A stretch of 51,026 nt of DNA, taken from a virus. Below the pieces are notes generated by a model that saw only the letters and a list, made by a program, of their open reading frames with translations, made no database searches and was not told the origin of the DNA. The DNA is taken from positions 1 through 51,026 of the IMG/VR virus record IMGVR_UViG_3300030514_000035; one strand, given 5' to 3'. Positions 9,371-25,127 of this stretch are shown here, in pieces; the stretch's first letter is position 1, and the number at the start of each line of letters is the position of its first letter. The translations under genes were made by a program, and so were the position numbers.

Positions 9371-11188
9371 ATTAGCTATGTAATGGTGATATTGGATTCA
9401 ATAGGGCTTTGCTGGTATAATAGGTGATTCATTGAGGCATGGACATTCTTGTTACCCAAAGCCTTATTACACATGGCGATCCTCTATCCTATACCCCCAA
9501 TTTGTGTGTCAAATAGACCCCCATAAGAGGGGAGATAGGATAGGATTTTGCTGTGAGGTTTCGATAAGCCTGTCGATAAGAGAAAATGGGAGATTCGTCA
9601 GGGTAAGTGCGGATCGAATGGCAAGGAATCGGAAATCTCGTGGTGTGTGAGTGAGGGTACATAGGTGCTTTTGGCTAGAAAAGTACTGGCATTTTGTGGG
9701 AATGTAGCCCCGTACCCTGTCCTAATAATATGCATTAGTCCGACACCCACACGAGCAAGCACGACACCAGCGCAAAACAGGGACGTACCCACCCATTACA
9801 GAATAGTCTGACAATTGTATGACCATGCATATACTTACACATTTACATGTACGCATGCATACTCACGAGGTTGTATTTTTTAGACTGACCAAACGTCACC
9901 AGTGCTACAGCTACAAGGCTTGTCGGTATATCAAACAGTATGGCGTGTGTGCAGGTGCTTATACACAATTCCACATACTTATTCACTCAACATCACGTTG
10001 TATTATTAAGCTGCAAACCTAGTCAATCCCTACAGTACAAACACTTCACGCCACTATACACCATTATTCATCACCATACATTTATGCACTATCCTATTCA
10101 TTCTTACATTCTCCAATACACCCACGCATACACACGCACACGTAAATACCACAACAAACAACAAATGTCAACACTTATTTACATCACTTGTTCATCTTTC
10201 TTTCATCACTCATCCTTTATGCACTGTCTATGCATGCTCAACAAAGGTTATACAAGAATCTTTAGAATCACAATAAACGTTGATACATCAGCATTCATTC
10301 ATCATTAGTCATGTGTCTTCTCTTGGTCTCTTGTCTCTTGTCCTTTATGCATCATCAATGCTTACTCATTAACTATCATCAATCACTCATTAACGTTGAT
10401 ACATCAATGCTTAACACTATGTATGTATACTATACATTATGTACTATACACATGTATGTATATACACTATCATGTATGCTTAGCACTATCTATCTAGTAC
10501 TACTACCATATATTACCAGTGTCATACAGATTATGGATTTTATATTTTTAGATATAGTGCTATTATGCAGGATACTATTAAGGGTATACTAAACCCTTTA
10601 ATAGCAAGCCTTCATAGGGTATGTTAGCACCCATCTATTAAGCTACCTAGTACCCACTTGTACACCCTCTCAAGCCTACTCCCATAAGGCTTTTCAATAC
10701 CCTGCATAGTACCCTTGTATAACGCCCTATATAGGGAGGGTATATAAGCCCATATAGAAAAGCTTTATATAGAAAAGGTATATGAAAACATTTACAATCC
10801 CATTAAATCAATAAAGAAAGCGCTTTCTAATCCCTTAATTTTTATTTTCTCTTTTCTTTTTCTAGTTTACATAACGCCTTTTTTCACAATCTTTATTTTA
10901 ATCAATCATAAACCCTTATACCATGCGTATTGTAAGCACTTACAAAGTATGTGAATCTACAATTAGTATCCTAGAATATGGTAGTTTCTATGGTGTCTAA
11001 TTGTGAACACAAACTGAATAGTCTGATAATTGTAAACTACGCTTTCATCCTTGGCGCTCTAAGGCTCAGCCCACTTTTCAATTGTGAACACACTTTTTCA
11101 ACTTTATTTTTCGCCATTTTTCGACACTCATTTTTTTAACATTTTTTTTCGAATTCTGTATCCCTTGGGAGAGTAGGGGAGAAAGCAC

Positions 11189-11197
11189 TTATCCACA
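11189..11197 (+). promoter_or_regulatory. DnaA box
   Basis: Perfect TTATCCACA. Confidence 0.6.
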
Positions 11198-11353
11198 CCC
11201 TCCAAAACAGTAATTTTAAAATTTTTTTAAATTCGTGATTAACTTGACATTGTCAATACTTTTGTTCAACCTACAGCCCCAAGGCTTTTAGCCACATTTT
11301 TTACCTCCAAATTTTTTTTATTTTATTTTTATCGAGTCGTTGAATTTTAGTAG

Positions 11354-11362
11354 TTATCCACA
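11354..11362 (+). promoter_or_regulatory. DnaA box
   Basis: Perfect TTATCCACA. Confidence 0.6.
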
Positions 11363-11725
11363 GGGTTTTTACGCCTTTTTCTAGCTATTTTTTGATATTC
11401 TTATCGAATCGCTGAAATCCCTTGTGGCTCTAAGTGTGAAGGCTTTTCGAATGGAGAAATTTGATCGTGTTTCTCCTACTAAATTACGTGTATGCGTGTT
11501 ACGTGAAAATCTAGCCTGAAAACTAGCTTCAAAATTTGTTCTCGAAATTAGCGTTTTGAGGTTGTACATTTTTCAAATACATTATACATTTATCTCAGGC
11601 AAACGAGACACGGCAACAAACGAACATGAACAATATAACACATGATACACACGAGCGATTGAACATCGACTCTCTATCATATATGTGTGTGAGGGATTGC
11701 TGGAAAACAAACTTTAACAAAAGTA

Positions 11726-11754
11726 TTGACAAACTGCTGAACATCGTTTAATCT
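11726..11754 (+). promoter_or_regulatory. sigma-A early promoter P1
   Basis: TTGACA-17-TAATCT; -35 overlaps the CAAAAGTATT motif. Confidence 0.75.
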
Positions 11755-11759
11755 AAAAG

Positions 11760-11925
11760 AGTCCCACACAGCAAGACAGGGACTTGGAAGAAGTTTCCAA
11801 CGGTTTACACCTTTAGGATTTCTCGACCTCGACTGCTGAGGGAGTAACTAGCAGATGCCTGACTTGGCTGATTTAACAAGTCTCTACACCAAACTGAGAG
11901 GATTTTAGGAGGTTGAAAACTTCTC
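11760..11925 (+). ncRNA. candidate ~165-nt structured RNA from P1
   Basis: AGTCCC/GGGACT and TTGGAA/TTCCAA hairpins; CCTTTAGGATTTCTC pairs with GAGAGGATTTTAGGAGG, enclosing CTGCT/AGCAG and GACTTG/CAAGTC. Confidence 0.55.
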
Positions 11926-11936
11926 AAACAAAAGTA

Positions 11937-11966
11937 TTGACAAGCTGAAAAATGCTGGTTTATACT
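11937..11966 (+). promoter_or_regulatory. sigma-A early promoter P2
   Basis: TTGACA-18-TATACT; -35 overlaps the CAAAAGTATT motif. Confidence 0.75.
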
Positions 11967-12073
11967 AAGAGAGTACCAAGCAACACGGTACGCTGGCAGT
12001 AACTACCATACATATTTTTTTACAGTAGTTACTCAATAGGTAATAAAGTAGTAAAGTAGTTTTGTTCTTCGAA

Positions 12074-12421
12074 AATTCCATAGGGTTAACAAGTTGACAA
12101 GCCTCAACTATAAAAAGATGTTGTGAAACATCATGGCTCACTGGTTCTACGATGAGAGAAGGCTCTCTAGAATGCAGTGTTTAGGAGTGTAAGATGCCTC
12201 CAGCGAGTACAGGTTTGACTGATGTGAAACTGCCACGTAAAGTGCGACAGGTGACTAGGCAACTATGGAACATGAGTTCCATGGAGTGAATAGCGTCACT
12301 ATACCATGCAGAAACCTTGAAAGCCACTGACTGTGCAAGCTTTAAGCTTGTAGCACTGGCAAGAAATTAAGTACCATTTGGTGCTTAATTCGAGCATCTA
12401 ACTAGTATAGATATTGGAATT
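12074..12421 (+). ncRNA. ~350-nt multi-domain structured RNA / leader of unknown family
   Basis: Closed by AATTCCA/TGGAATT; long-range TGGCT/AGCCA and AGGTTT/AAACCT; about 10 local hairpins including GTGA and GCAA GNRA loops; preceded by boxA-like GTTCTTCGAAAA. Confidence 0.7.
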
Positions 12422-12460
12422 AATCACTAAATACTAAACAATGAATTGGAGAGATTTATA

Positions 12461-13336
12461 ATGAAAAATGTACAAGTAACTGTAGAAATGAAAAATGCAA
12501 CAATAGTAGGAATCGTTGAGCGTGTTGAACTTCCAAACGTTTACATCTTGGCTGGCTCTGATATCTACAAATTCCACGTTGACGAACTAAAATTCGATAA
12601 CGAAAACATGAAGCAAAAATTCGAGAAATTATACAAAACTAAAATCAAAATGAGTCAAGTTAAAATGGGTTTAAGTGAAGGTAATAAGAAGCTACAAGAT
12701 AATAAAGTAGTTGCATTCTATCAATGGAATATAACATCTGTTATATCATGTCCATTCCGCACTGAAATGTGTGAGAAAGCTTGTTACGCTCTAAAGGCTG
12801 AGCGTATGTATCCAACGGTTAACGCTCGTAGAATTTCAAACTTAGAGTTCTCAAAATCTGATCGATTTGTAAACACTATGATTGACCAAATCGAATTTGA
12901 ATTGGCTCGTAAAAAGAACAAAGGCAAAACAATTTTCTATCGTATACATGAGGCTGGCGACTTCTACAGCTATGAATACCTTGCAAAATGGCACGAAATT
13001 GCTAAACACTTCAAAGGTAATAGAAATATAGTTTTCATGGCTTACACAAAATCTTTACCATTCGTAAAAACACTTTACAAAAACGTGGGAAAAGAAAATG
13101 TTAACATCACATTCAAGTCATCAATTTGGGACGACACAAAAGAAAAATTCATTAAAATGACTGATGAACTAGGCATGAGCGTATTTACTGCAGTAGATAA
13201 AGGAACGATGGAAGAAAAAAATTATTTCGCTTGTCCATCTTCTGAGGCTTTCAAAGGCACAGAAAAAGAAAAAGACTGTGGTCAATGTAAAGTATGTTAC
13301 CTTGCAGAAACTAACGTAGCTATCGAGATTCATTAA
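12461..13336 (+). CDS. GP88-family Cys-rich (radical-SAM-like) phage protein
   Basis: CPFRTEMCEKACYA, RIHEAGDF, AYTK, C-terminal CP...CGQCKVC; RBS GGAGAG before ATG 12461. Confidence 0.75.
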   Translation: MKNVQVTVEMKNATIVGIVERVELPNVYILAGSDIYKFHVDELKFDNENMKQKFEKLYKTKIKMSQVKMGLSEGNKKLQDNKVVAFYQWNITSVISCPFRTEMCEKACYALKAERMYPTVNARRISNLEFSKSDRFVNTMIDQIEFELARKKNKGKTIFYRIHEAGDFYSYEYLAKWHEIAKHFKGNRNIVFMAYTKSLPFVKTLYKNVGKENVNITFKSSIWDDTKEKFIKMTDELGMSVFTAVDKGTMEEKNYFACPSSEAFKGTEKEKDCGQCKVCYLAETNVAIEIH

Positions 13337-13376
13337 TCTTGGTAGCTTAAACAAAAGTATTGACAATAAAAATAAA

Positions 13377-13441
13377 TTCTCGTCAGAGCGAGAAAAAATA
13401 GTGCATTAGGCTCTGAGCGTTCCCCATATGGGGAGGTTGCA
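13377..13441 (+). ncRNA. pistol self-cleaving ribozyme
   Basis: P1 TTCTCG/CGAGAA with loop TCAGAG pairing to CTCTGA (pseudoknot); AAATAG linker; P2 TGCA/TGCA; GCG; P3 TTCCCC/GGGGAG; GU cleavage dinucleotide at 13436-13437. Confidence 0.92.
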
Positions 13442-13475
13442 AGAAAAAAATAAATTATATTGGAGATGTTCACAC

Positions 13476-14855
13476 ATGAAAATTTTAAAATCAATCACTA
13501 ACGCATTAACTAAGGCAGAAGAAAAAAGAGGCGTAGCAAGCGTGGCTACAGTTCGTCAGGATGTTGTACGCAGAGCCATCGAGCGAGAAGAATTTGAATT
13601 AATTAAATGTGCTTATCATTTAACTGATGACTATGCATGGGACGCAGTAAATAATTTTGGTCATGATAAAAATGTAACAAAAGAATACATGATGAAAGAA
13701 TATTCAATTCTAACGCCTAGTTGCTGGGTTGACCCTAAACTGCACGAAATAAATGGAATTCAATGTTATGAAATATCTATCAGCTTTCACTCAAATCTAT
13801 CATATGACATGTATGTGCCAGTGGATGGAAAAAAATCTGAGCCAGTGAAAGAAGAGAAAGAGGAGGAAAAAGAAATGGAAGAGCAAAAAGAAAAATTATA
13901 CAAGCGTTACGATTTACAGGATGAGAGTGATTTTGAAATTGAAACATTAGACCAAATGAAATTATGGCTTGCTGATTTTTGGGAAAATAACCCTGATGAC
14001 GATATGAGCGAAGAAGAGCGAAACAACTTAACTGATGAAATTTGGGCATCAGATGCTGACGAATTGTTTGAAAGACTGGCAGGAATTGATTATTCATTCT
14101 ATGTACTAGATAAAGATGGGAATGTAATCGAGGATGAATACGAAGAGTTACCAATAAGCATCGAGCAAAATTTCATCATGGGTTATGGTGTGGAAGTACG
14201 TCAGATTGAAGAAAAAACTTTACGAGTAACAGTAAGAAGAGGCGAAGCAGAAGAGGCGCAGGTCTATACAATGGAGATGCCAAAAACATTTGAAGAAGTT
14301 AACGAAATCTTTGAAGCGCAACGCACTGTCATTCGTGCAGAAGTGAATGCGATTATCGAAGAAAATGGAGGACTATCAAAAATAATTAATTCTGAAGAAG
14401 AGGAGGAAAAGGACGAGGAAGGAGAATTTGAATCATTAAATTTCATTCTTGACCATGAAAAATTATGCTTCACTGGCTACGAGTTCGAAGGAAAAGAAAT
14501 TTTCATAGAAGAAACTGGCAGTACACAATCATTGTTCCGCATGGATATATGCAAAGAAAAAAATGTAGTTACTGTCTATTCAGCTTATAGTGAGGACTAC
14601 GATGTAATGGAAGAGGTTACGCATCTATTCGATATAGAAAAACTTCGTGCAGACATTGAAAGTTGGATTGCAGAGCATGAAGATGTGCCAAATCATTGCG
14701 AGGAATACATGGAAATGAACTTCGAAGAACAGTCTGTATACATCTGTAATGAGTGTAACGAAATGCACGAAGATAAAACAATAACTTGTGAATACTGCCC
14801 AAGTGAATCGATTAGAGAAGTAGCTAAAAGCGATATGGATATGCAAGTAGTTTAA
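13476..14855 (+). CDS. large acidic multi-domain early protein with C-terminal Zn ribbon
   Basis: The real start is 13476 (RBS GGAGAT); the ORF-track start at 13428 lies inside the ribozyme. Very E/D-rich; CNEC..CEYC. Confidence 0.75.
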   Translation: MKILKSITNALTKAEEKRGVASVATVRQDVVRRAIEREEFELIKCAYHLTDDYAWDAVNNFGHDKNVTKEYMMKEYSILTPSCWVDPKLHEINGIQCYEISISFHSNLSYDMYVPVDGKKSEPVKEEKEEEKEMEEQKEKLYKRYDLQDESDFEIETLDQMKLWLADFWENNPDDDMSEEERNNLTDEIWASDADELFERLAGIDYSFYVLDKDGNVIEDEYEELPISIEQNFIMGYGVEVRQIEEKTLRVTVRRGEAEEAQVYTMEMPKTFEEVNEIFEAQRTVIRAEVNAIIEENGGLSKIINSEEEEEKDEEGEFESLNFILDHEKLCFTGYEFEGKEIFIEETGSTQSLFRMDICKEKNVVTVYSAYSEDYDVMEEVTHLFDIEKLRADIESWIAEHEDVPNHCEEYMEMNFEEQSVYICNECNEMHEDKTITCEYCPSESIREVAKSDMDMQVV

Positions 14856-14918
14856 GAGCCAAGAAAATTTCTTGGCTCTATTTAATTATCAAATAAATTA
14901 TGAAGGTGGAAAAAATAA

Positions 14919-15332
14919 ATGATAACAAGTTATAAAGGTAGAACAGTCAAAGAAGGTCAAAAGGTATCTGCATTTTGGAATTTACATCACCATGTATTTA
15001 GCTTACAAAGCAATGTAACTGAAGAGGGGAAAAGAAAAACCTTAGTAATATCACATTGCAATGGAGTAATACTTAAGGATGTTAAATTTGTAGTTCGTAA
15101 GGCTGGGCGTGAAAGAGTATTGAAAGAGCGACAAAAAAACATTCATGCATTCGTGAAAGGTGAATTTGTAGGCGAGGCAGATTTCTTACAAGAATTAAGT
15201 ATTGGCGCTGGCATGCGTGAAGCTTATTACAATCCATTTAAACAAGATTGTTTCACAGATAAAGAGACAGGCGAAAAATTAACTGGTGCTGAAATAGTCA
15301 TCTTAAAAGATAGAAAAGTATTTTACAAATAA
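14919..15332 (+). CDS. conserved phage hypothetical protein
   Basis: WNLH..FSL, KAGRERVLKERQKNIHAFV and YNPFK motifs, which I recognise from a widespread phage family of unknown function. Confidence 0.75.
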   Translation: MITSYKGRTVKEGQKVSAFWNLHHHVFSLQSNVTEEGKRKTLVISHCNGVILKDVKFVVRKAGRERVLKERQKNIHAFVKGEFVGEADFLQELSIGAGMREAYYNPFKQDCFTDKETGEKLTGAEIVILKDRKVFYK

Positions 15333-15361
15333 AAAATAAACTATATAGGAGAGTGTTTTAA

Positions 15362-15598
15362 ATGTCAGGAACTACAACAGTATTGAAAGAAGAAAGAAAT
15401 TCAAAAGGATTTGTAAAGCTTAGTAAGAACGAAGGTTGCATGATGATAGGCAGAGGTAATTGCCTTACAGTATGGGGAAACATTGGAGGCGTGGGAATGT
15501 TTACACTGTCTTATAAATTAACTGAAGAGGAAAGAGCAGAAAATAAATTCAAAGAGTATTCAATAGTGTTAGCAAATAGAGAAGGAGGCGTTAAATAA
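15362..15598 (+). CDS. hypothetical protein
   Basis: RBS AGGAGAG. Confidence 0.65.
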   Translation: MSGTTTVLKEERNSKGFVKLSKNEGCMMIGRGNCLTVWGNIGGVGMFTLSYKLTEEERAENKFKEYSIVLANREGGVK

Positions 15599-15888
15599 TG
15601 GCTAAGAAAGCAGATGCAAAAACAAAAAAGCAATATGAAGCAGTGGTAAAAAAGATTCAAGATAAAGGGTTATTAATGAATGGAGAAATACTTGAGAAAG
15701 GTTACTTCTCTATGGCTGTATACAAGACGCAGGAAGAAATAAATTCCCTCTATTGCTGTATTACATATATGGACGATGAAAAACCTTTTAGCGTTGAATT
15801 CTACAGCGCTGGTGAATGTGAAGAGTGTGGAGCATTTAAAACACCAGCAACAGCATTAAATAAAATCACAAAGAAATTAGGAGCGTGA
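15598..15888 (+). CDS. hypothetical protein
   Basis: RBS AGGAGG, coupled. Confidence 0.7.
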   Translation: MAKKADAKTKKQYEAVVKKIQDKGLLMNGEILEKGYFSMAVYKTQEEINSLYCCITYMDDEKPFSVEFYSAGECEECGAFKTPATALNKITKKLGA

Positions 15889-16118
15889 ACAAAATGATTT
15901 TTAACAACGTAGAAATGACAGTAGAAATGAAAGATTTAAAGTATATGACAGTGGCAGAAATAAATATTGTTGAATGGATAACAGCGCTTGAATTAATAGA
16001 GATTCAAGGTTCAATAGTATTAGCTATACACGAACTAGAAATAAAGCGTAAAGCAATAATACAGAAAAGAAAAAATATAATAGACATGGCAATGCATGAA
16101 TTAATGGAGGTGTTATGA
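15885..16118 (+). CDS. hypothetical protein
   Basis: Coupled ORF. Confidence 0.6.
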   Translation: MNKMIFNNVEMTVEMKDLKYMTVAEINIVEWITALELIEIQGSIVLAIHELEIKRKAIIQKRKNIIDMAMHELMEVL

Positions 16119-16333
16119 TGAACTTAAACTTTATACCTAAAAAATATCAAGCTGTATTAGATGAAGTTTACAAAGATTCTGATGGATGGTGGGCTTATAC
16201 AAAGACAGGTTACTTCTTTGAGGCTATGGAATGCCACACAGCGCATGAATACACGCAAGTAGAGTTAATGAAAGTGATTAGAACTATAAGACCTTGTACA
16301 TGTGAATCATGTGAAGAGGCGAGAAAAAAATAA
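16115..16333 (+). CDS. small Cys/His protein
   Basis: RBS GGAGG; CHTAHE...CTCESC. Confidence 0.7.
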   Translation: MMNLNFIPKKYQAVLDEVYKDSDGWWAYTKTGYFFEAMECHTAHEYTQVELMKVIRTIRPCTCESCEEARKK

Positions 16334-16350
16334 TAAGGGAGTTGTTAAAA

Positions 16351-16752
16351 ATGTTTAAACAAAAAATAATCAATACTAATTCAATGGTTAAATTTATTTC
16401 AAATGCATTAGGTGAAAAATTAGATATAAATAATCGTGAGGAATTCAAAGAGTTTAAAAAGAAAATAAAGCAAGCTTACAAGAGAGAGTTTCCAAGCAGA
16501 ATAAAAAGATATCCTAAGCACTTTGTAAATCAATTTCACTTTTCAGATGAGCATGGAGAAAATTCTACAACAGTAATAATATTCGAAAATAAAAAAGGTG
16601 TAATGGAAGGCATACACGCTAACTTGAATGTAGAAGGTGACAGAAATTATTATGACTACTCACCAACTGGACTATGGTTTTCTGATCCAGCCAAGATATA
16701 TGAATTCAAAGAAAGAATCGTATACGTACAGCATTCAACATTAGATTGTTAA
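16351..16752 (+). CDS. hypothetical protein
   Basis: RBS GGGAG before ATG 16351. Confidence 0.65.
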   Translation: MFKQKIINTNSMVKFISNALGEKLDINNREEFKEFKKKIKQAYKREFPSRIKRYPKHFVNQFHFSDEHGENSTTVIIFENKKGVMEGIHANLNVEGDRNYYDYSPTGLWFSDPAKIYEFKERIVYVQHSTLDC

Positions 16753-16787
16753 GCACGGAAAATAAATTATATAGGAGATGTTTACAA

Positions 16788-16997
16788 ATGACTGAAAGAA
16801 TTAACGAAGGAACTATATTTCCAATAACGGATAATGGACAAGAAAAAATGTATGTGACAGATGCACCTTACAAAGTGATTGCTGATTGTTTTATAGAGGC
16901 TGAATATCTATATGACTATATAACACTCATAAAAGAAAAAGGTTATCGTATCAATAGATATAGACCTTCTATAAGTCTTAGCTTTGATGATAAATGA
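16788..16997 (+). CDS. hypothetical protein
   Basis: RBS AGGAGAT before ATG 16788. Confidence 0.65.
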   Translation: MTERINEGTIFPITDNGQEKMYVTDAPYKVIADCFIEAEYLYDYITLIKEKGYRINRYRPSISLSFDDK

Positions 16998-16999
16998 AA

Positions 17000-17068
17000 T
17001 GCCGAAACGCTGGAAAAAACTTTCTAGCGTCATGGAGTGGTGATGCGCTCTATCTGACGAGGCAGTCA
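17000..17068 (+). ncRNA. type II hammerhead ribozyme
   Basis: TGCC-GAAA-[CGCTGGAA/TTCTAGCG]-TC|-[ATGGAGTG/CGCTCTAT]-CTGACGA-GGCA; GUC cleavage after C17031; loop-I TGAT can pair with 3' GTCA. Confidence 0.93.
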
Positions 17069-17100
17069 GTATTTAAACAAATGTATGGGAGATGGTATAA

Positions 17101-17523
17101 ATGGCAAAGGCAAAGAAAAAAATTAGATGGAGACCATGGGTAAAGGTTACGTTTGGTCTAATGGTAACAGCATTAACAGTGGTAGTTGTAACTCAGGTTT
17201 ATGAAGCGTTTGGAACTTTTGCATCTGATGGAAAGGATTATCAAGAGGCGCAAGAAAAAACTTACCCTAATGTGTTACATGCTGTTGTAACAACGTCTGT
17301 CAATGGCTCTACACACATTACATTCATTGAGGATTTAGGCAAGCCTGACATGGAAATAAAGGCTGAGAATAGCCATGTAGAAGGAAGAATATTAACAGTG
17401 GCATTTGATAGAGATGGTAACATTGATACAACATATCCAACTAGTGAAAACTCAGTAAAAAAACTTAAAGAAAAATATTCTACACAGTACAAGATAGTTA
17501 TGGATAAGTTCTACAATAATTAA
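17101..17523 (+). CDS. membrane-anchored hypothetical protein
   Basis: Basic N-terminus followed by one TM helix. Confidence 0.7.
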   Translation: MAKAKKKIRWRPWVKVTFGLMVTALTVVVVTQVYEAFGTFASDGKDYQEAQEKTYPNVLHAVVTTSVNGSTHITFIEDLGKPDMEIKAENSHVEGRILTVAFDRDGNIDTTYPTSENSVKKLKEKYSTQYKIVMDKFYNN

Positions 17524-17606
17524 TTATTGACTATTTACTTTATTGGTAGTATAGTAATAAATGTATTAAGTAAAGCAAAAATAAAATATATTGGAGATGA
17601 CTTAAA

Positions 17607-18224
17607 ATGAAAAAGTTTAAAAAGGTTTTAACAATAGCAATGGTATCTGTAGGTTTAATGGCAGGAGTTACACAGGCACAAGCGCAAGAAAAAAATTACA
17701 CGACTGATGTATTCATGGTTCAGTATCTAAATGAAGATGGCATGCTTGAAGCTAAGCCTGTTAATCCAAAACATGATGGTGGTTATCTATTAGATAATAA
17801 ATATGAATTAGGTGACATCGTAGAAGTTACATACAACAATGATGATATTATCGAAGAGCATAAATTAACTGGTAAAGAACTTGAAAAGGTTGAGAAAAAA
17901 TTTGAAGGCAACATTGATGCATTAATGGATGAAGGTGAAAAAATAACGCAAGAAGGCAGTGTAGCAACAGATAATTATATGATTCAAAATATTGATAAAG
18001 ATGGATGGGCTACAGCAAAAATAGTTTCTGATTACTTCACAGGTGAAGCAACATTCAAGGTAGAAAAAAATATGTCATTGGGCGATATCGTAAGCGTAAC
18101 ATACAATGATAATACAGGTGATGTTATTGAGTATCATGAAGTGTCTGATGATGTAAGATTTGCATTAATGGGTATAGATGCTTATATGAAAGTAATGAAA
18201 GAAATCATGAAGAATGGAGAGTAA
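17607..18224 (+). CDS. secreted protein with internal tandem duplication
   Basis: Signal peptide ending AQA; two repeats D.(F/Y)M(V/I)Q..DG..AK...LGDIV.VTYN; own promoter TTGACT-17-TATAGT. Confidence 0.75.
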   Translation: MKKFKKVLTIAMVSVGLMAGVTQAQAQEKNYTTDVFMVQYLNEDGMLEAKPVNPKHDGGYLLDNKYELGDIVEVTYNNDDIIEEHKLTGKELEKVEKKFEGNIDALMDEGEKITQEGSVATDNYMIQNIDKDGWATAKIVSDYFTGEATFKVEKNMSLGDIVSVTYNDNTGDVIEYHEVSDDVRFALMGIDAYMKVMKEIMKNGE

Positions 18225-18347
18225 ACAAAAGACTTAATTATGGCTGAGGATGGAACTTTTGTAGATAAAGACTTCAATAAATAATTAGTTAATTACACAG
18301 TATTTGAACGATATAAAACATAAAAATTGATAAAGGAATTGATAAAA

Positions 18348-18755
18348 ATGAAAAAAATAATAACTTTACTGCTTACAATCGGGATTTTGTTCACTGGAAC
18401 AACTGGAGCATTTGCAACTTCAAAAGCTGGCATTTCGGCTAATACAACTAAAATAAATCACTATATCAAAAAAGACTTAAGCATAAGTATTAAAGTAAAA
18501 AATGATAACAATTATGAGATGGGAGTAGAGTTACAACCACAGAAAAAAATCAATGGCAAATGGGTTGATTTAGATTGGTATGATTATGACTTCTATAAAC
18601 CTGAACAAAAGATAGCCACACAGCACAGTATCAAGGCTGAGTACAAAAATAAAAAAGGTGAATACAGATATAAAGTGACAGCAAATAAGTTCGATAAAGA
18701 GGGATTTGAAGTGCCTCAAGGCGTGTTCTACACAGGAATTTTCAAAATTAATTGA
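18348..18755 (+). CDS. secreted hypothetical protein
   Basis: Signal peptide MKKIITLLLTIGILFTGTTGAFA. Confidence 0.7.
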   Translation: MKKIITLLLTIGILFTGTTGAFATSKAGISANTTKINHYIKKDLSISIKVKNDNNYEMGVELQPQKKINGKWVDLDWYDYDFYKPEQKIATQHSIKAEYKNKKGEYRYKVTANKFDKEGFEVPQGVFYTGIFKIN

Positions 18756-18882
18756 CAAATCGTTAAAATAAATTATTGACTGTATGTATGGTGTAGTGTA
18801 ACATTGATAGTGTGATACAGTATATCGTAATATCACTGAGCAAGGGATTAAAAAAATTAACCTTTAAAGGAGTTTGGCGAAA

Positions 18883-20172
18883 ATGCAAAAATCAAGCATG
18901 CAATACACAATTAAAAACTTTATGAAGGATGTAGAAGATAATCTTATTAGCTTCACATACCCTATTCAACGTGAAGGTGGACAGTGGGATAAGACACAAA
19001 AATCTTTACTGATCCATTCAATCCTAGCTAATTATCCAGTACCTTCACTATATGCACTTAATGAAAAAATAGATGGCAAATTAGTTTTGCAAGTACTAGA
19101 TGGTAAACAACGATTAACAAACATTCGTGACTTTATTGATGGAGAATTCTACTTACATGAAGTAGATACTCCTCCAGTAGTTATTCGTGGAAAAAAAGAA
19201 ATTCTTGCAGGACTAACATTTGATGAACTTAGCAAAAATGCACAGGATGCAATCCTTGATTTCTCTCTAGACATCTGCAAGATTGAAGAGGCGACAGATG
19301 AAGAAATTGAAGATATGTTCTTCCGATTAAATAATGGTACTCCATTAAGTAAGCAACAAAAAGCAAAAGCTAAAATGGGTAGTGAGTGGGCAACTAAAAT
19401 TCAAGACCTTGTTAAACATGACCTTATTACAAAGAAAGCTTCATTCACACCATTGCAAATTCGTAAGGCTGACCACGAAACAGCATTGTTACAAACTATG
19501 ATGTTGATTGACCCAAATCATGAGTTAAAAAGTATTTCATCTAATGATGTATTTGCATACTCACAAACATTCAAGGAAGATGCAAAAAATAAAGAAGAGA
19601 TTGTAAAAAAACTTGTAGATGTAATGGATTACCTAGACAATTCATTCGAAACAAAAGAACCTATGTTGCTTAAGAAGGTTCACTTCCCAATGACTATACT
19701 AACTGCAATGATGGCGAAGGAAAGAAAGCTTGACAACATCAAGTTTGGAGATTGGAGAACAGAGTTTAAAAAATCTCTTAAAGCAACTCCTGAAGACCTT
19801 CTTTCAGATGATATTATTGCAACTGACTATAAGAATTTTGGTGGCGCTGGTTCAGTTAAGAAAGATAAAACTCTTGGTCGTGTAAACGCCATGAAAGAAC
19901 ACCTTGAGAAGTATGTAAATAAAAATGTTGCTAAGGTTGCTACTACAAGCCCTGCAAAGCCTGTAGGAGAGAAAAAACCTTCTGCTAATACCCAAGCATC
20001 TAAGACTGAGAAAAAACCTGTAGAGGCTAAAAAAGAAGCGCCTAAAACACAGGCAGAAGTTAAGGTTGAAGACAAAAGAAAAACAACTGAGAAAAAAACT
20101 CCAGCAAAGCCAACAGGTAAAGCGCAACAAGTAAAGAAAGAATCAAGTAAAGAAAAAACTACAACAGCTTGA
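18883..20172 (+). CDS. DUF262 (ParB/Srx-like) domain protein with basic disordered tail
   Basis: IQREGGQW, LIHSILANYPVP, VLDGKQRLT, FFRLNNGTPL; K/T/P-rich C-terminus. Confidence 0.85.
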   Translation: MQKSSMQYTIKNFMKDVEDNLISFTYPIQREGGQWDKTQKSLLIHSILANYPVPSLYALNEKIDGKLVLQVLDGKQRLTNIRDFIDGEFYLHEVDTPPVVIRGKKEILAGLTFDELSKNAQDAILDFSLDICKIEEATDEEIEDMFFRLNNGTPLSKQQKAKAKMGSEWATKIQDLVKHDLITKKASFTPLQIRKADHETALLQTMMLIDPNHELKSISSNDVFAYSQTFKEDAKNKEEIVKKLVDVMDYLDNSFETKEPMLLKKVHFPMTILTAMMAKERKLDNIKFGDWRTEFKKSLKATPEDLLSDDIIATDYKNFGGAGSVKKDKTLGRVNAMKEHLEKYVNKNVAKVATTSPAKPVGEKKPSANTQASKTEKKPVEAKKEAPKTQAEVKVEDKRKTTEKKTPAKPTGKAQQVKKESSKEKTTTA

Positions 20173-20302
20173 TAAAATAAATACTCACCTTGGACAAGTT
20201 CTAAGGTGAGTATAATATATAGAACAAGGCAAAAGTATTGACAATAAGAAATATTCATATATAATTGGTAATACATACTAACTGAGGGATGGAGTGGTTT
20301 TA

Positions 20303-20878
20303 ATGTTTAAGAAGAGCACGATAAAAACCCAAATTTGGATGAAAGTTGAAAGTATATGGAGATTGATTTACAAATTAGAGTTTTCAGAAAAACATTCTGA
20401 AAGAGTTAATGAGATAAGAGAAAGTGAAGTATTAGACACTCTATGGAACATTGGTGATAAAAAAACTGTTTACCAAAAATATAAAAAAGATGAACTCTTT
20501 GAACTATTAGAAGAGGCAGGAAAAATATTAAATGAATTAGAAGAGATGGAAAAAGAGGTTCAAGTGTATGTAGCTGGTGGCGTTGAGTTTGCAGACTACG
20601 ATGAAGTAGTTGGAGTATCATACATCAGAAAAAGTTTTTATTGGAGTACATTCTTAAGGACTGTACATGGAGCATTTAGAAAGCCAATAACATTTATGGT
20701 TAGAAAAACAAATGAGAAAGAAATGAAGATAAAAGAGAATTGGAATCTCGAAGTCATGAAAGAAACATCTGATTACTACAAATGTTTGATACCAGTTGAA
20801 GACCAAATAGAAATGTCTTACAAGGATGATGTTATAATCATGGTATCTGAAGAGAAATGGAGAAAAATAAAATCGTGA
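20303..20878 (+). CDS. hypothetical protein
   Basis: Downstream of a motif-associated promoter at 20238. Confidence 0.65.
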   Translation: MFKKSTIKTQIWMKVESIWRLIYKLEFSEKHSERVNEIRESEVLDTLWNIGDKKTVYQKYKKDELFELLEEAGKILNELEEMEKEVQVYVAGGVEFADYDEVVGVSYIRKSFYWSTFLRTVHGAFRKPITFMVRKTNEKEMKIKENWNLEVMKETSDYYKCLIPVEDQIEMSYKDDVIIMVSEEKWRKIKS

Positions 20879-21219
20879 TATTAGAAGCAACTAGTTTAGT
20901 AGATTTCGTATATGAACACCTGATAAAAAAATCTAAACACAAATTCGTGCATATAGATGAAGTATCAGAGTTCTTGAAGCAAAAACTTAAAGATGATTAC
21001 ACAAGTGAATTAGCAATAGAGGTTAAGAATGAATTAAGGGATCATGAGAAGCTTGATTTCTTCCGTGAAGATACTTACATCGAAGAAAATAAATATCATT
21101 ACTGTACAGGCAATTGGCTTGCAGTGAAGGGTTTGTACGATAATCCAGTACAGGCTAAAAATAAACTTGGGTGGTACGCATGGCAAGAAACAGAAGAGAT
21201 AGATTGGGACAATGTCTAA
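20857..21219 (+). CDS. hypothetical protein
   Basis: Overlapping ORF in operon. Confidence 0.65.
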   Translation: MEKNKIVILEATSLVDFVYEHLIKKSKHKFVHIDEVSEFLKQKLKDDYTSELAIEVKNELRDHEKLDFFREDTYIEENKYHYCTGNWLAVKGLYDNPVQAKNKLGWYAWQETEEIDWDNV

Positions 21220-21263
21220 TCTATCTCTTACATAAAATATATAAATGCTGGAGGCTGAAATAA

Positions 21264-21770
21264 ATGTCAAATGTACACTATGAAAAAATAACTGGTTCAA
21301 TCAATAATATGCGCAGAGGTTACAAGCATAGAAGAGATGAAGTGGTAAAAGAATTAATCGAAAGTGTAGCAGAAATAGAATTAAGCACACATGCAATGGC
21401 AGAAAGAAATGAGCAGGATTATTTATATCTAGGTATCATCAAGTTACACATAGAAAAAATTCAAGAACTACAGGCTATGATGGAAGTATTAGATGGTCTT
21501 AAGGATTCGCAAAAATTAATTGAAAAGAATTTTCCTGTAAAAAAACAGGCTATAGATTGTGGCGAAAATAAAATTTACTGGTATACATATAGACATCGTG
21601 GTTTTAGCTTAGGATGCCAGCCAAAAGGTTTTATAAGACATGATGAGAGTGTTTGCAAATTTGGTGCAACAGCATATAGAAGACCATTAACTCATGATGA
21701 GTTAGTAGAATATGAAATGCATTTATATAAAGTTGAAGATGGCACAGAAGCTACAGAGTGGGTGAAATAA
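21264..21770 (+). CDS. protein with DarA C-terminal-like domain
   Basis: YWYTYRHRGFSLGCQPKG...FGATAYRRPLTHDELVEYEM resembles the DarA_C (defence against restriction) pattern, from memory. Confidence 0.55.
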   Translation: MSNVHYEKITGSINNMRRGYKHRRDEVVKELIESVAEIELSTHAMAERNEQDYLYLGIIKLHIEKIQELQAMMEVLDGLKDSQKLIEKNFPVKKQAIDCGENKIYWYTYRHRGFSLGCQPKGFIRHDESVCKFGATAYRRPLTHDELVEYEMHLYKVEDGTEATEWVK

Positions 21771-21925
21771 TGTTCACATTAGATGAATTAAAAGATATGT
21801 CTAAAGAACTTAACTGGTCAGGAACAGCAGGATTCAATATAGACACTCAAAGAAAACTAGTTGATACCTTGATAGAGTATATCGAGGAAGAACAGCGAAA
21901 AGAAAAGGAAGAAAGCATGTTTTAA
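21770..21925 (+). CDS. 51-aa hypothetical protein (not in ORF track)
   Basis: TAATG-coupled ORF MFTLDELKDMSKEL...ESMF. Confidence 0.55.
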   Translation: MFTLDELKDMSKELNWSGTAGFNIDTQRKLVDTLIEYIEEEQRKEKEESMF

Positions 21926-21965
21926 GTAATAAAATCAACCTTTTATTAGGATAGGAGAGTATATT

Positions 21966-22247
21966 ATGAAGATTAGATTAAATCTTTTAGCGCAGGGTTA
22001 CTCAACAATTTCAGATAAGATAGTAGATAATTTTGGAGAACTTGTCTCTCGCTCAAGAATAGGCGAAGAATTGCACGTAGGCGACATTGTTCTTTTAAAA
22101 GATAATAAAGAAGCTATTGTTACTGGAGATGGCATTTATAGCAGAAAAATGATTGCTGATGGAATACATGTAGATAGAATTGTAAAGAAGTTTACCTCTT
22201 TGGAAGTTGGAGATATTTACTTAAAAGGTTTAGTAGAAATTATCTAA
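21966..22247 (+). CDS. hypothetical protein
   Basis: RBS AGGAGAG. Confidence 0.65.
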   Translation: MKIRLNLLAQGYSTISDKIVDNFGELVSRSRIGEELHVGDIVLLKDNKEAIVTGDGIYSRKMIADGIHVDRIVKKFTSLEVGDIYLKGLVEII

Positions 22248-22372
22248 AATATTTTTGTGTAAATAGGCATAAGGATGGAAACTTTATGTTGACATCCCTC
22301 TTTTTTCCCATGTATACTTAACACATGGTTTAGTAGGTTACTAGGTTACGAATAAATTAAAAGGGGAGAAAA

Positions 22373-23242
22373 ATGATGAGAGAGAAAAAGAAAGCTACAA
22401 AGAAAACATTGCTTAAAAGGTTTTTAATTGGTGGAGTAATCGTGGTTGTAGGATTAATTTCTTATGGTGGAGGATTAAATGGAGCAGAAACATCAATTGA
22501 TGGCGAGAAGGCTACATATGGAGATTTGTTAATTAAAGTTGACAATACAGAAACTAAACTAAAGAGTACTCAAGAGGATGTAAAAGAAGAAGAAGCTAAC
22601 CTTAAAGAGACTAAAGAAGATGCCAAAGAAGTAATGGCTTTGATGGATAAGCAAGATGAGATTGAAAAAGATATTCAATCCAAAGAAAAAGAATTAAAAG
22701 AAAAGTCTACTCAGGTTGATAAAGTTGATTCAACAATCGATGAAAAGAAAGCCAAGGTAGAAGAAGAAGTTGCTAAGTATGAAAAAGAATTAGAGCAAAA
22801 GAACGCAGATAAAAAGAAAAAGCTTGAAGAGGAGAATGCTTCTCTAGATAAAAAAATCGAAGAGAAAAAATCTAAGGTCGATGCAGAGGTCGCAGACCAT
22901 AAGCGAGAATTAGAGTCTAAGTTAGCTTCATTAGAATCTGATGTAAAAGAAAAAGAAGATAAGTTAGCAAGTCTTGACACTGGAATTAAAGAAGCAGAAG
23001 GCGCACCAATTACATTAGATGCTGGAGAATATATTATTGATAAAGATGTACCTACTGGTCGATATAAAGTTACTAACATTGGTAGAGGAACTAACTTCCA
23101 AGTATTTGATTCAAGTGGTTCAACAGTGGTTAATACTATCCTTGGTAATGGCGATATTGGGCGAGGAGATTATGTATTCTTTGCAACAGAAAATACTTTA
23201 ATCAAGACTGCAGGAGCAGTAAAACTAATCCCTGTAGAGTAA
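22373..23242 (+). CDS. membrane-anchored coiled-coil surface protein
   Basis: N-terminal TM, long coiled coil and C-terminal beta domain (LDAGEYIIDKDVPTGRYKV); own promoter TTGACA..TATACT. Confidence 0.75.
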   Translation: MMREKKKATKKTLLKRFLIGGVIVVVGLISYGGGLNGAETSIDGEKATYGDLLIKVDNTETKLKSTQEDVKEEEANLKETKEDAKEVMALMDKQDEIEKDIQSKEKELKEKSTQVDKVDSTIDEKKAKVEEEVAKYEKELEQKNADKKKKLEEENASLDKKIEEKKSKVDAEVADHKRELESKLASLESDVKEKEDKLASLDTGIKEAEGAPITLDAGEYIIDKDVPTGRYKVTNIGRGTNFQVFDSSGSTVVNTILGNGDIGRGDYVFFATENTLIKTAGAVKLIPVE

Positions 23243-23293
23243 TTCAAATCATATAAAAAAATAAAACTATATAATTCATCGGAGGAAATAATC

Positions 23294-23578
23294 ATGGCAC
23301 AAGTTACACTAAAGAACGAAACAGGCGTAGCAAAAGAATTTAAGGTAGGATTTTCATGGACAGTATTCTTTTGGGGAGGCTGGGTTGCAATGTTCCGTGG
23401 TCAATGGTCAGAGTTCGCTAAATGGGTATTCTTAAATCCTTGTACAGTAGGAATTTGGGGAATATGCCAATGCTGGACAGCGAATAAAAAAACTATAATA
23501 CACCACATGGAAAAAGGCTACAAACCAGCAAGTGACGTAGATACAAACATTCTAAAAAATAAAGGTATCATTGCATAA
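23294..23578 (+). CDS. DUF2628/HrgC-like small membrane protein
   Basis: KVGFSWTVFFWG...FRGQW, ...NK...KGY. Confidence 0.7.
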   Translation: MAQVTLKNETGVAKEFKVGFSWTVFFWGGWVAMFRGQWSEFAKWVFLNPCTVGIWGICQCWTANKKTIIHHMEKGYKPASDVDTNILKNKGIIA

Positions 23579-23690
23579 TTAAAACTAAGAGGCTGTTAAT
23601 TTAATCGTTGACAGCCTTTAAAAAAAGAATTATACTTTATTAGTGATATAGTAATAAACCAATACATAATACATATCGGAGGAATCAATA

Positions 23691-23945
23691 ATGATTAAAA
23701 TCGAGCGTTCATACCCAACAGCAGTACTAGTAGAAGCAGGAGATATTTTCTATGTAGAAGGAACTGAAACTTACCTTCAACTAATAGAACTAGGAGATAA
23801 ATTTGCATTACTTGACCTGTCAACATCATCTATAACTTCAGCATCAATCAATTGTGAAATTCATGCAGTTAACCATGTGAAAAAACATTATGGAGAATAT
23901 GAGTTAATTAAAAGTTCTCGTGTAACTTTCAAAATCCAAGACTGA
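23691..23945 (+). CDS. hypothetical protein
   Basis: RBS GGAGG. Confidence 0.65.
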   Translation: MIKIERSYPTAVLVEAGDIFYVEGTETYLQLIELGDKFALLDLSTSSITSASINCEIHAVNHVKKHYGEYELIKSSRVTFKIQD

Positions 23946-24095
23946 ACTAAAGTATTGACAATAAGTAATAAGTTGATAAAGACAGAAAATAAATAATATT
24001 CTGTGAATAAGTTGACAACTTTTGGTGAAAGATATATACTGTAACCATGAGTTACTAATTTACTAATAAATGAATTAAGTAGGAGGTCATTACAC

Positions 24096-25127
24096 ATGAG
24101 TAATGCAGGAGAAAGATTCAAGGAAATTTTGGCTAAATTAGAAGCAGAAGAGAAGCGTAAGAAAGATGTTGTTGCTCCAATAAATTCGATTCGTGTAAAC
24201 CCTGACTTTACATTTGAAGGCGCAGATTTTGGAAAGGCGAAATTCACTGACCATGCATTTGGTCAACTTTGTAACACTGTTTACAAATATCCATTACCAC
24301 CTGAATACTTTAAAAATCTTTTTGAAGACGATCCCGAATGGTTTGCAGTTCAAATGAATCGTCACCTTGAAAAAGGAAAGGGACTTGATAGAAAGTTCCG
24401 TACAATAGGGAATATCGGTGAGGGTAATCATGATTCACTGGTTCGAGGTGTTGTTTCAAAGAACTTCATACCATACGATAACTTAGATACATTAAGCGTG
24501 TTTGAAGATGTTGCTAGGTCAGGAAGAATTCCTGAATTCGATTTAAAGATTGGTGATATCAATGACAATAGAATGTTTTTACGATTTATGTTTCCTGCCA
24601 CAGAAAAGAATTTTGGTCGCTCTTACGATGGTCAAGACGACAGAAACTTTGTAGCACTTGATTTAATCAATAGTGAAGTAGGATTAACTTCTATCATGGC
24701 TAACCCTTCAATCTATCGATTAATTTGTACAAATGGAATGGTAGCTAAGGAAGCTGAGTATGGCTGGTACAAACAGCGTCACATCCACATAGACCCATTA
24801 CAAGTAAACATGGATTTAAAGAAATCAATTGTGCATGGTATAGAGATGGGAAAAGATATCTTAGGTAAGTTTGGACAGGCTCGTCAGATAACAGTTCAGA
24901 ATCCATATGAAGAAATAACTCGATATGGTAAGAAGGCTAGACTATCTGAGAAGATGCTGAAGGCTGTTAGAGAGAACTATGATATAGAAGCAGATAAAAG
25001 TCTTTTTGGCGTAGTAAACGCATTTACAAGGTGTGCGAGAGACCTTAAGAGCATACAAGCTAGAATAGATTTAGAGAAATTTGCATCAAAAGTATTAGAT
25101 GAAGGCTTAAAAGCTAAAGCATCTTAA
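24096..25127 (+). CDS. DUF932-family protein
   Basis: RGVVS..F.PYDN, LINSEVG, YRLICTNGMV, FGVVNAFT. Confidence 0.8.
   Translation: MSNAGERFKEILAKLEAEEKRKKDVVAPINSIRVNPDFTFEGADFGKAKFTDHAFGQLCNTVYKYPLPPEYFKNLFEDDPEWFAVQMNRHLEKGKGLDRKFRTIGNIGEGNHDSLVRGVVSKNFIPYDNLDTLSVFEDVARSGRIPEFDLKIGDINDNRMFLRFMFPATEKNFGRSYDGQDDRNFVALDLINSEVGLTSIMANPSIYRLICTNGMVAKEAEYGWYKQRHIHIDPLQVNMDLKKSIVHGIEMGKDILGKFGQARQITVQNPYEEITRYGKKARLSEKMLKAVRENYDIEADKSLFGVVNAFTRCARDLKSIQARIDLEKFASKVLDEGLKAKAS

Follow-up and report, generated by a model that had tools for sequence, protein, structure and literature searches.

The window analysed here is a 51,026-nt stretch of a 145,395-nt virus record (labelled G000), which homology assigns to an SPbeta-like phage of Bacillaceae: it carries an MrpR-family gene at 27870 together with ligase, helicase and integrase-like genes, and has relatives in Bacillus records. 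Within it, a pistol self-cleaving ribozyme occupies the gap between a GP88-family gene, whose stop codon lies 40 nt upstream of the first ribozyme stem (P1), and ORF459 (Table 1). A search for structural relatives of GP88 in the PDB returned none, and ORF459 has neither a Pfam family nor a usable Atlas match. ORF459 is itself a mosaic, in that its acidic modules vary even between 98%-identical relatives while its N-terminal domain is conserved, and the block around the pistol is mosaic as well; in one relative (G002) separate genes encode the N-domain and a later module. Of 56 proteins encoded within ribozyme blocks or next to them, 50 have no Pfam family, and annotated phages gave no DNA match to 12000-15500 and no match of pistol length. 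The GP88 gene upstream, a repeat resembling a repressor site 11 nt before P1 and a second, probable ribozyme at 17000 go beyond the original prediction for this locus, which was concerned with the pistol and the early gene behind it.

Table 1 Features of the pistol locus and its surroundings (positions in the window)
Feature	Position	Strand	Basis and remarks
Sigma-70-type promoter-like site	11937..11966	+	11/12 consensus match; overlaps a repeat copy
GP88-family gene (PF17338)	12461..13336	+	Pfam 113.6 bits; 291-aa product present in protein collection
Repeat copy	13347..13365	+	ends 11 nt ahead of P1
Pistol self-cleaving ribozyme, whole motif	13377..13441	+	Rfam RF02679
P1 stem with 6-nt loop	13377-13382/13389-13394; loop 13383-13388 (5' pseudoknot strand)	+	sequence, covariation
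A-rich linker, P1 to P2	13395..13401	+	sequence; three A invariant in 19-row alignment
P2	13402-13405/13438-13441	+	sequence, Rfam; 4/4 pairs
Catalytic core G13409, G13410 (positions 32, 33)	13409..13410	+	sequence, invariant columns
3' pseudoknot strand	13411-13416	+	sequence; 6/6 pairs with loop 13383-13388
Core G13417-C13418-G13419 (G40, C41, G42)	13417..13419	+	sequence, invariant columns
P3 hairpin, 6 bp, 4-nt loop	13420..13435 (13420-13425/13430-13435)	+	sequence, fold
Predicted scissile 2-nt G-U junction between P3 and P2	13436..13437	+	PMC4604425, Rfam alignment
Predicted 39-nt 5'-OH leader, A-rich	13437..13475	+	weak Shine-Dalgarno (SD) sequence 13462-13468; SD-like GGAG 13462-13465
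ORF459	13476..14855	+	conserved N-terminal domain of ~120 aa plus variable acidic modules
11-bp hairpin just past ORF459 stop	14855..14879	+	terminator-like, weak U tail
Type II hammerhead, probable	17000..17064	+	2 nt past stop; predicted cut after C17031, 69 nt before ATG 17101
MrpR-like repressor gene (PF22822)	27870..29183	+	Pfam 66.4 bits

The stretch 13377-13441 is an intact pistol ribozyme. An Rfam search of the window, the check that the original prediction had proposed, matched RF02679 to 13378-13441 on the plus strand with 68.9 bits, well over the gathering cut-off of 34.5 (E = 1.5e-10), and the match spans all 68 model positions (1-68). It is the sole gathering-level Rfam match in the window and the single pistol copy in the whole 145,395-nt record; no glmS-type ribozyme was matched by Rfam in the window. 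As had been claimed, all pistol elements are present: stems P1, P2 and P3 of 6, 4 and 6 bp, the pseudoknot, the core residues G13409, G13410, G13417, C13418 and G13419, and the linker adenines A13396-13398. As a gauge of chance, a relaxed descriptor that asks for just the motif, P1 and the pseudoknot matched three times in 40 versions of the genome generated by an order-2 Markov model. The minimum-energy fold nests the two pseudoknot strands as a helix in place of P1 (-21.3 kcal/mol, against -16.5 for nested P1-P2-P3 without the pseudoknot); such an outcome is to be expected where pseudoknots are beyond the scoring of the folding program. Two competing calls inside the motif were set aside: an in-frame ATG at 13428 within P3, which has no SD, all homologues starting at the methionine of 13476, and a minus-strand terminator call on P1 (13394-13377), one of 7 such calls where 5.3 are expected by chance.

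Comparative evidence for the fold comes from an alignment of the window pistol with 18 hand-picked others. Of the 209 cells in P1 and the pseudoknot, 97.6% were paired, and two-sided changes were found in 7 of the 11 pairs (4 of 6 in the pseudoknot), a level seen in 0 of 500 shuffles, in a type of count that kinship inflates; slid pairings, used as controls, were only 22-45% paired. The count covered P1 and the pseudoknot, as the 3' strands of P2 and P3 did not line up between the sequences. In the nearest pistols, which lie on Bacillus plasmids, a pseudoknot pair is swapped in step.

Position numbers (32, 33 and 40-42) follow env25, whose general layout was mapped onto 13377-13441. By that mapping the window motif is, as originally described, like env25 element for element, apart from a G at position 32. 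The pistol core has been given as a purine at 32 with G33, G40, C41 and G42, and A32G is listed among the tolerated changes (PMC6154101), which covers the residue found here. Cleavage of pistols is placed in the 2-nt G-U junction and leaves a 5'-OH and a cyclic phosphate (Harris et al. 2015, PMC4604425). For the window pistol the cut had been predicted at G13436/U13437, 39 nt ahead of the ATG at 13476, a position that agrees with both the sequence and the Rfam alignment. We consider it highly probable that this RNA is able to cut itself.

A transcript passing through the pistol would probably originate at the promoter-like site at 11937-11966, the best such site, by consensus match only, in 9000-20000. 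Our scan found no terminator-like site on the plus strand between it and the pistol and none after GP88; the terminator-like hairpin at 14855-14879 is placed between the pistol and the probable hammerhead at 17000. We regard the transcript as probably early, because the small-gene block of unknowns follows a long non-coding stretch and because GP88 relatives in Streptomyces phages lie near genome ends, at two places per record. The non-coding stretch, 9120-12460, is ~3.3 kb long and nearly devoid of credible genes, includes low-complexity stretches and three repeat copies (one inverted, 11251-11266) and is possibly a packaging or entry end. The part of it that leads from the promoter-like site to GP88 (11975-12460, a leader of ~490 nt) is more stably folded than each of 100 shuffled versions (z -2.85), with several long hairpins; it has no Rfam match and carries different letters in a contig of the related run X11. 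The final 101 nt of the record repeat its internal 419-519, with no copy of the first 418 nt there, so its termini may have been trimmed wrongly. Further along the same block, 18874-25127 encodes GmrSD_N, DarA_C and weak DUF932 domains, possible anti-defence genes.

The repeat copy ahead of P1 belongs to an oriented family with 33 matches in the window, against 1.8 expected by chance, and 54 copies in the genome at no more than 2 mismatches, whose direction follows transcription on both arms. Some copies carry a -10 box and some stand directly ahead of a ribosome-binding site. In SPbeta, MrpR binds the SPBRE sites (PMC10516654), and by analogy the repeat is likely the site read by the MrpR-like repressor. 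The two systems share an MrpR-family gene and many oriented intergenic repeats, one of them adjoining the pistol in our case; the likeness to the SPbeta sites described in that source is one of layout, and repressor binding is putative here. We rejected the TTGACA at 13360 as a promoter, as it has no -10 element at 16-18 nt and is part of the repeat; relatives have 1-3 nt deleted in the spacer, and the hexamer itself is changed in three runs.

With moderate confidence, we favour the reading that the pistol splits a polycistronic and probably early mRNA so that each piece has a lifetime of its own, short in the case of the ORF459 piece. RNA polymerase would run from the site at 11937 through GP88 after the MrpR-like repressor has left its sites, and the transcript would then fold and cut at 13436/13437 without the help of a protein. 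The GP88 piece would end in the folded motif and a 2',3'-cyclic phosphate. The ORF459 piece would start with a 5'-OH and an A-rich leader of 39 nt, open to RNase J1 unless a ribosome occupies the SD. One tested pistol cleaved at ~10 per minute under physiological conditions (PMC4604425). Such a segmentation is supported by the motif itself and where it sits, by the way close relatives keep it, and by ribozymes of other classes that fill this gap in other phages; against it stands that the element is not conserved with either flanking gene alone. Processing of the polycistronic early mRNA, as originally put forward, is also the best reading in our hands, given that no terminator was found between 11937 and the pistol and that other classes occupy the gap in two other phages.

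The second half of that original proposal, that the 5'-OH shields the downstream message from RNase J1 and so prolongs ORF459 expression, conflicts with what is known of the nuclease. Protection by a 5'-OH is known for RNase E in E. coli and is not known for J1. In B. subtilis the 5'-OH product of glmS is rapidly degraded by RNase J1 (PMC3328962, PMC11780869), an enzyme that requires a 5'-monophosphate or 5'-OH and is blocked by a triphosphate or a 5' hairpin (PMC3328962, PMC11780869, PMC5737220). Folding predicts no 5' hairpin in the ORF459 leader, and the SD duplex of ORF459 (-6.5 kcal/mol) is among the weakest checked (15 other starts, including one that is mis-placed, range from -6.4 to -12.6). 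Some room for the idea is left by the finding that B. subtilis 5'-OH ends are trimmed by 2 nt to monophosphates through an activity unidentified in the source (PMC11780869), such that J1 may take 5'-OH ends more slowly than 5'-monophosphates. The hbs mRNA offers another opening: RNase Y cuts it ~35-40 nt before the start codon, and J1 then either trims up to the initiating ribosome or destroys unbound mRNA, so that, where the SD is strong, a bound ribosome can yield a processed message that is stable (PMC5737220). The ORF459 orthologues of G002 and G008 do have stronger SDs (-10.7 and -10.2), and one may conjecture that a phage inhibits host nucleases. Weighing these points, we hold protection by the 5'-OH to be very unlikely, and given the weak SD of ORF459 the likely net effect of the cut is a short-lived, not a stabilised, ORF459 message.

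The cut might instead insulate translation by freeing the ribosome-binding site of ORF459 from upstream structure. Leaders of 27-43 nt do recur behind unrelated ribozymes, as such a function would allow, but the predicted accessibility of 13460-13478 is nearly equal in cut and uncut RNA (one folding model, without the pseudoknot), and we give this explanation as little credence as protection by the 5'-OH.

Where pistols sit in general bears on which of the two products is selected. Scanning viral contigs for the pistol pattern yielded 120 loci, of which 114 have P1 and pseudoknot; genes around them were called by ORF heuristics. Pistols lay within 15 nt behind the stop of an ORF of at least 80 aa in 15 of 66 viral cases, against 2.6% at random places and none on the other strand, and among 48 compact pistols (those with long or unresolved P3 left out) the predicted cut fell 25-45 nt before a start codon in 17, against a random null of 4.8%. 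When each ribozyme was instead placed at random inside its own gap, which dropped 9 of the 48 for want of a downstream start, both excesses shrank: 20 of 39 were near a stop (13.6 expected, p = 0.002; by group 12 of 23 against 8.3, p about 0.01) and 17 of 39 had a leader of 25-45 nt (10.0 expected, p = 0.002), the latter not significant with one pistol per related group (7 of 23 against 4.7, p = 0.14). Much of the positional pattern is thus due to short gaps, with a modest excess left. Within short gaps the near-stop excess is gone (13 of 17 against 12.1), while the excess of 25-45-nt leaders is kept (14 against 8.3). The notion that pistols are tied to stop codons only was weakened by short ORFs, by true cut sites and by the in-gap null. 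In one further contig (L020), five pistols within 3 kb each have a predicted cut 31-39 nt before a start codon.

These positions matter to a rival explanation in which the upstream product is what selection sees: the GP88 mRNA would gain a defined, folded, cyclic-phosphate 3' end, the ribozyme substituting for a terminator while polymerase continues. The crowding of pistols behind stop codons speaks for it, as does the lack of a terminator after GP88 here, when a hairpin is common at that place in ribozyme-free relatives (G003, G004, G005 and G006, by eye). Its weak points are the loss of the near-stop excess in short gaps, the 40 nt that separate P1 from the GP88 stop, the frequency of TAA in pistol flanks, which can end chance ORFs, and a protective effect of the cyclic phosphate that is itself inferred. 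We judge it improbable as the main selected function, and it is compatible with the splitting of the message that we prefer.

Close relatives of the locus show how the motif is kept. Over 12428-13893, a 104-kb contig of run X11 differs at 91 of 1466 letters and at none in 13374-13510; at that rate, the chance of no change in the 65-nt motif is 0.016. The unchanged stretch takes in the leader and the first codons and so does not single out the ribozyme. Three further runs leave the motif intact except for 13383 T>A, which is carried by two contigs with a depth below 5, and an A stands at the matching position in 2 of the 19 aligned pistols. The spacer just ahead of P1 varies in all four runs compared. 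One of 24 runs is an RNA run, available as contigs only; it covers 6 of 30 bins, none of them over the pistol.

A different kind of explanation treats the pistol as a passenger, either mobile or close to neutral, or as an anchor at which gene cassettes recombine, with a cut that matters little. It draws on the lack of the element next to the nearest relatives of each flanking gene, on the mosaic block and on the nearest pistols, which are 82-87% identical, number up to 5 per Bacillus plasmid and in some cases lie near the mobQ relaxase gene; close ones are found on B. subtilis and B. velezensis plasmids. In three such plasmids of 58-72 kb (W02, W03, W05), 2-5 pistols over the Rfam cut-off stand among small genes, with mobQ 3 kb away in one case, in what would be a tractable system in B. 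subtilis and relatives. Against a passenger speak the one gap filled by three unrelated folds, the intact cores, the coding-strand orientation of all 16 descriptor matches among the best 80 of 459 GP88 loci, and the unchanged motif in X11 amid 6% divergence; the single pistol in the record provides no repeat for recombination, which counts against an anchor. We find a passenger unlikely, and rank the splitting of the message first, followed by selection for the GP88 3' end, then the passenger and, level with each other, 5'-OH protection and translation insulation.

An argument for the cut itself comes from the same junction in other phages. GP88 lies directly ahead of an ORF459 N-domain gene in three lineages, and in all three a ribozyme or ribozyme-like RNA fills the gap. 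In G002 it is a type I hammerhead, 30 nt past the GP88 stop, with its predicted cut 39 nt before the ATG; this call rests on the descriptor, as Rfam gives only 21.8 bits (E = 1.1). In G008 (L191) it is a twister-P1-like RNA (43 bits, E = 3.3e-6, below the cut-off of 67.2), which starts 31 nt past the stop and ends 39 nt before the ATG. By the usual twister cleavage site, the G008 cut would presumably fall ~86 nt before the ATG. That one gap holds three unrelated ribozyme folds points to the cut as the thing under selection, and cutting, not ribozyme class, is likely what matters at this junction. The three lineages are not three independent events, since G002 and G008 fall into one group of the GP88 tree, along with the ribozyme-free G005 and G006 (L190 was left out of this tree, and L055 forms a long branch); the tree of the ORF459 N-domain lacks resolution, with 0 of 6 branches starred.

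A ribozyme does not go with either flanking gene alone. We found none at the junction of the closest GP88 relatives (G004, 78%; G003, 72%) or of the closest ORF459 N-domain relative (G001, 80%), and none after GP88 where other genes intervene (G003, G004, G005, L188, W06) or where the N-domain gene is absent from the fetched stretch (G006). The ribozyme-free 3' sides of GP88 (G003-G006, L188, W06) have the repeat instead, often together with a hairpin, which was seen by eye in G003, G004, G005 and G006. In the best 80 of 459 GP88 loci, scanned by descriptor and 10 of them also by Rfam, a pistol or hammerhead lies within 80 nt of the GP88 stop in 1 of 65 clusters, or 2 counting the L191 twister; that GP88 is generally followed by a ribozyme is thus rejected, with only 2 of 80 loci showing one. 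In an unrelated phage (L055), a pistol sits right behind GP88 with its cut 28 nt before the next ATG.

The pistol is accompanied by a second candidate, so that two ribozymes, one of them probable, mark coding-strand gene boundaries of one block. The stretch 17000-17064 is probably a type II hammerhead: it has stems of 8, 4 and 10 bp with an open stem II and the conserved core, is the best descriptor match in the genome and folds with a z of -4.2. RF02276 scores it at 32.4 bits (E = 0.004), under the cut-off of 37, and a genome search with that model did not return it. Counterparts occur in G004, G005, G006 and W06, in three of which the cut lies 66-68 nt before the next ATG, and that of G004 is likewise under the Rfam gathering cut-off. 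Searches of the genome for twister P1, P3 and P5, hatchet, twister-sister and HDV-like RNAs gave no match; these searches also missed hammerheads that the descriptor found, and had a positive control for twister-P1 only.

Ribozymes recur in this block beyond the junction. At least one lies in the GP88/ORF459 block of 7 of 9 records, with none in the stretches of G001 and G003 that were scanned. On the minus strand of G002 (L165:8690-13234), seven type I hammerheads stand at gene junctions within ~4.5 kb, with cuts 39, 39, 35, 36, 40, 35 and 27 nt before start codons; none reaches Rfam gathering level in the part scanned, and the hammerhead descriptor gave 2 matches in 1.1 Mb of shuffles. In G008 (L191:3234-5498), a twister-P1-like RNA, a hammerhead, a pistol and another hammerhead, the last identified by eye and both of type I, make four ribozymes of three classes within 2.3 kb of small genes. 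Elsewhere, a GP88 relative has four hammerheads of type II on its downstream side (L196:3443-5432), another twister-like RNA lies at L207:5526-5577, and relatives of the ORF459 N-domain have hammerheads just behind their stop codons (L156:4260-4327, L163:6319-6382).

Taken further, and here we are doubtful, phages and plasmids of Bacillus type may use interchangeable pistol, hammerhead and twister RNAs as protein-free stand-ins for RNase Y, setting up a race between J1 and the ribosome by a cut ~30-40 nt before the start codon. Beside a repressor site, such a cut could be a second lock against leaky read-through in the lysogen and lead to a timed early pulse. The three folds in one gap amount to a natural swap experiment and show which constructs to compare; the Bacillaceae host group, as judged by homology, and the similar plasmid pistols make the question testable in B. 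subtilis with existing RNase mutants.

As a member of its class, the motif is ordinary. It shares with pistols as described (RF02679, PMC4604425) the three stems, the pseudoknot, the G-U junction and the conserved core, and with the family at large a setting in Firmicutes and phage; there is no notable structural difference apart from the G at position 32, and what is new is the locus and its context. The role of bacterial self-cleaving ribozymes other than glmS has been called largely elusive, and processing of phage polycistrons is described as awaiting proof (2019 review, PMC6765202). Our literature search, which took in few subscription papers and no supplements, found nothing on self-cleaving ribozymes in the leading regions of conjugative plasmids or in phage early genes.

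Among characterised systems, glmS with RNase J1 in B. subtilis has in common with the window pistol a self-cleavage ahead of a start codon that yields a 5'-OH mRNA in a Firmicute. As described, glmS needs GlcN6P and resides in a 5' UTR, whereas the window pistol is intercistronic and has no known ligand. The hbs mRNA (PMC5737220) resembles the predicted ORF459 message in being cut ~35-40 nt before the start and in setting J1 against the initiating ribosome, a functional analogy only: there a protein nuclease leaves a 5'-monophosphate ahead of an exceptionally strong SD, whereas at the pistol locus an RNA catalyst would leave a 5'-OH ahead of a weak one. Similar in layout are the clustered prophage hammerheads of Perreault et al. 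(2011, PMC3088659), which flank single genes or short blocks and were proposed to divide the polycistron into mRNAs of gene length; cleavage was shown in vitro for three of the arrays, one of which also cleaved in E. coli. The general idea of ribozymes as punctuation dates from 2011, and both systems place ribozymes at gene boundaries, in the window those of a putative polycistron. These arrays are described for hammerheads alone, whereas the window pairs a pistol with a probable type II hammerhead, and across phages three classes share one orthologous gap. As judged from sequence, what this locus adds is a swap of three classes at one named junction, with the same predicted 39-nt leader for two of them, beside a likely repressor site.
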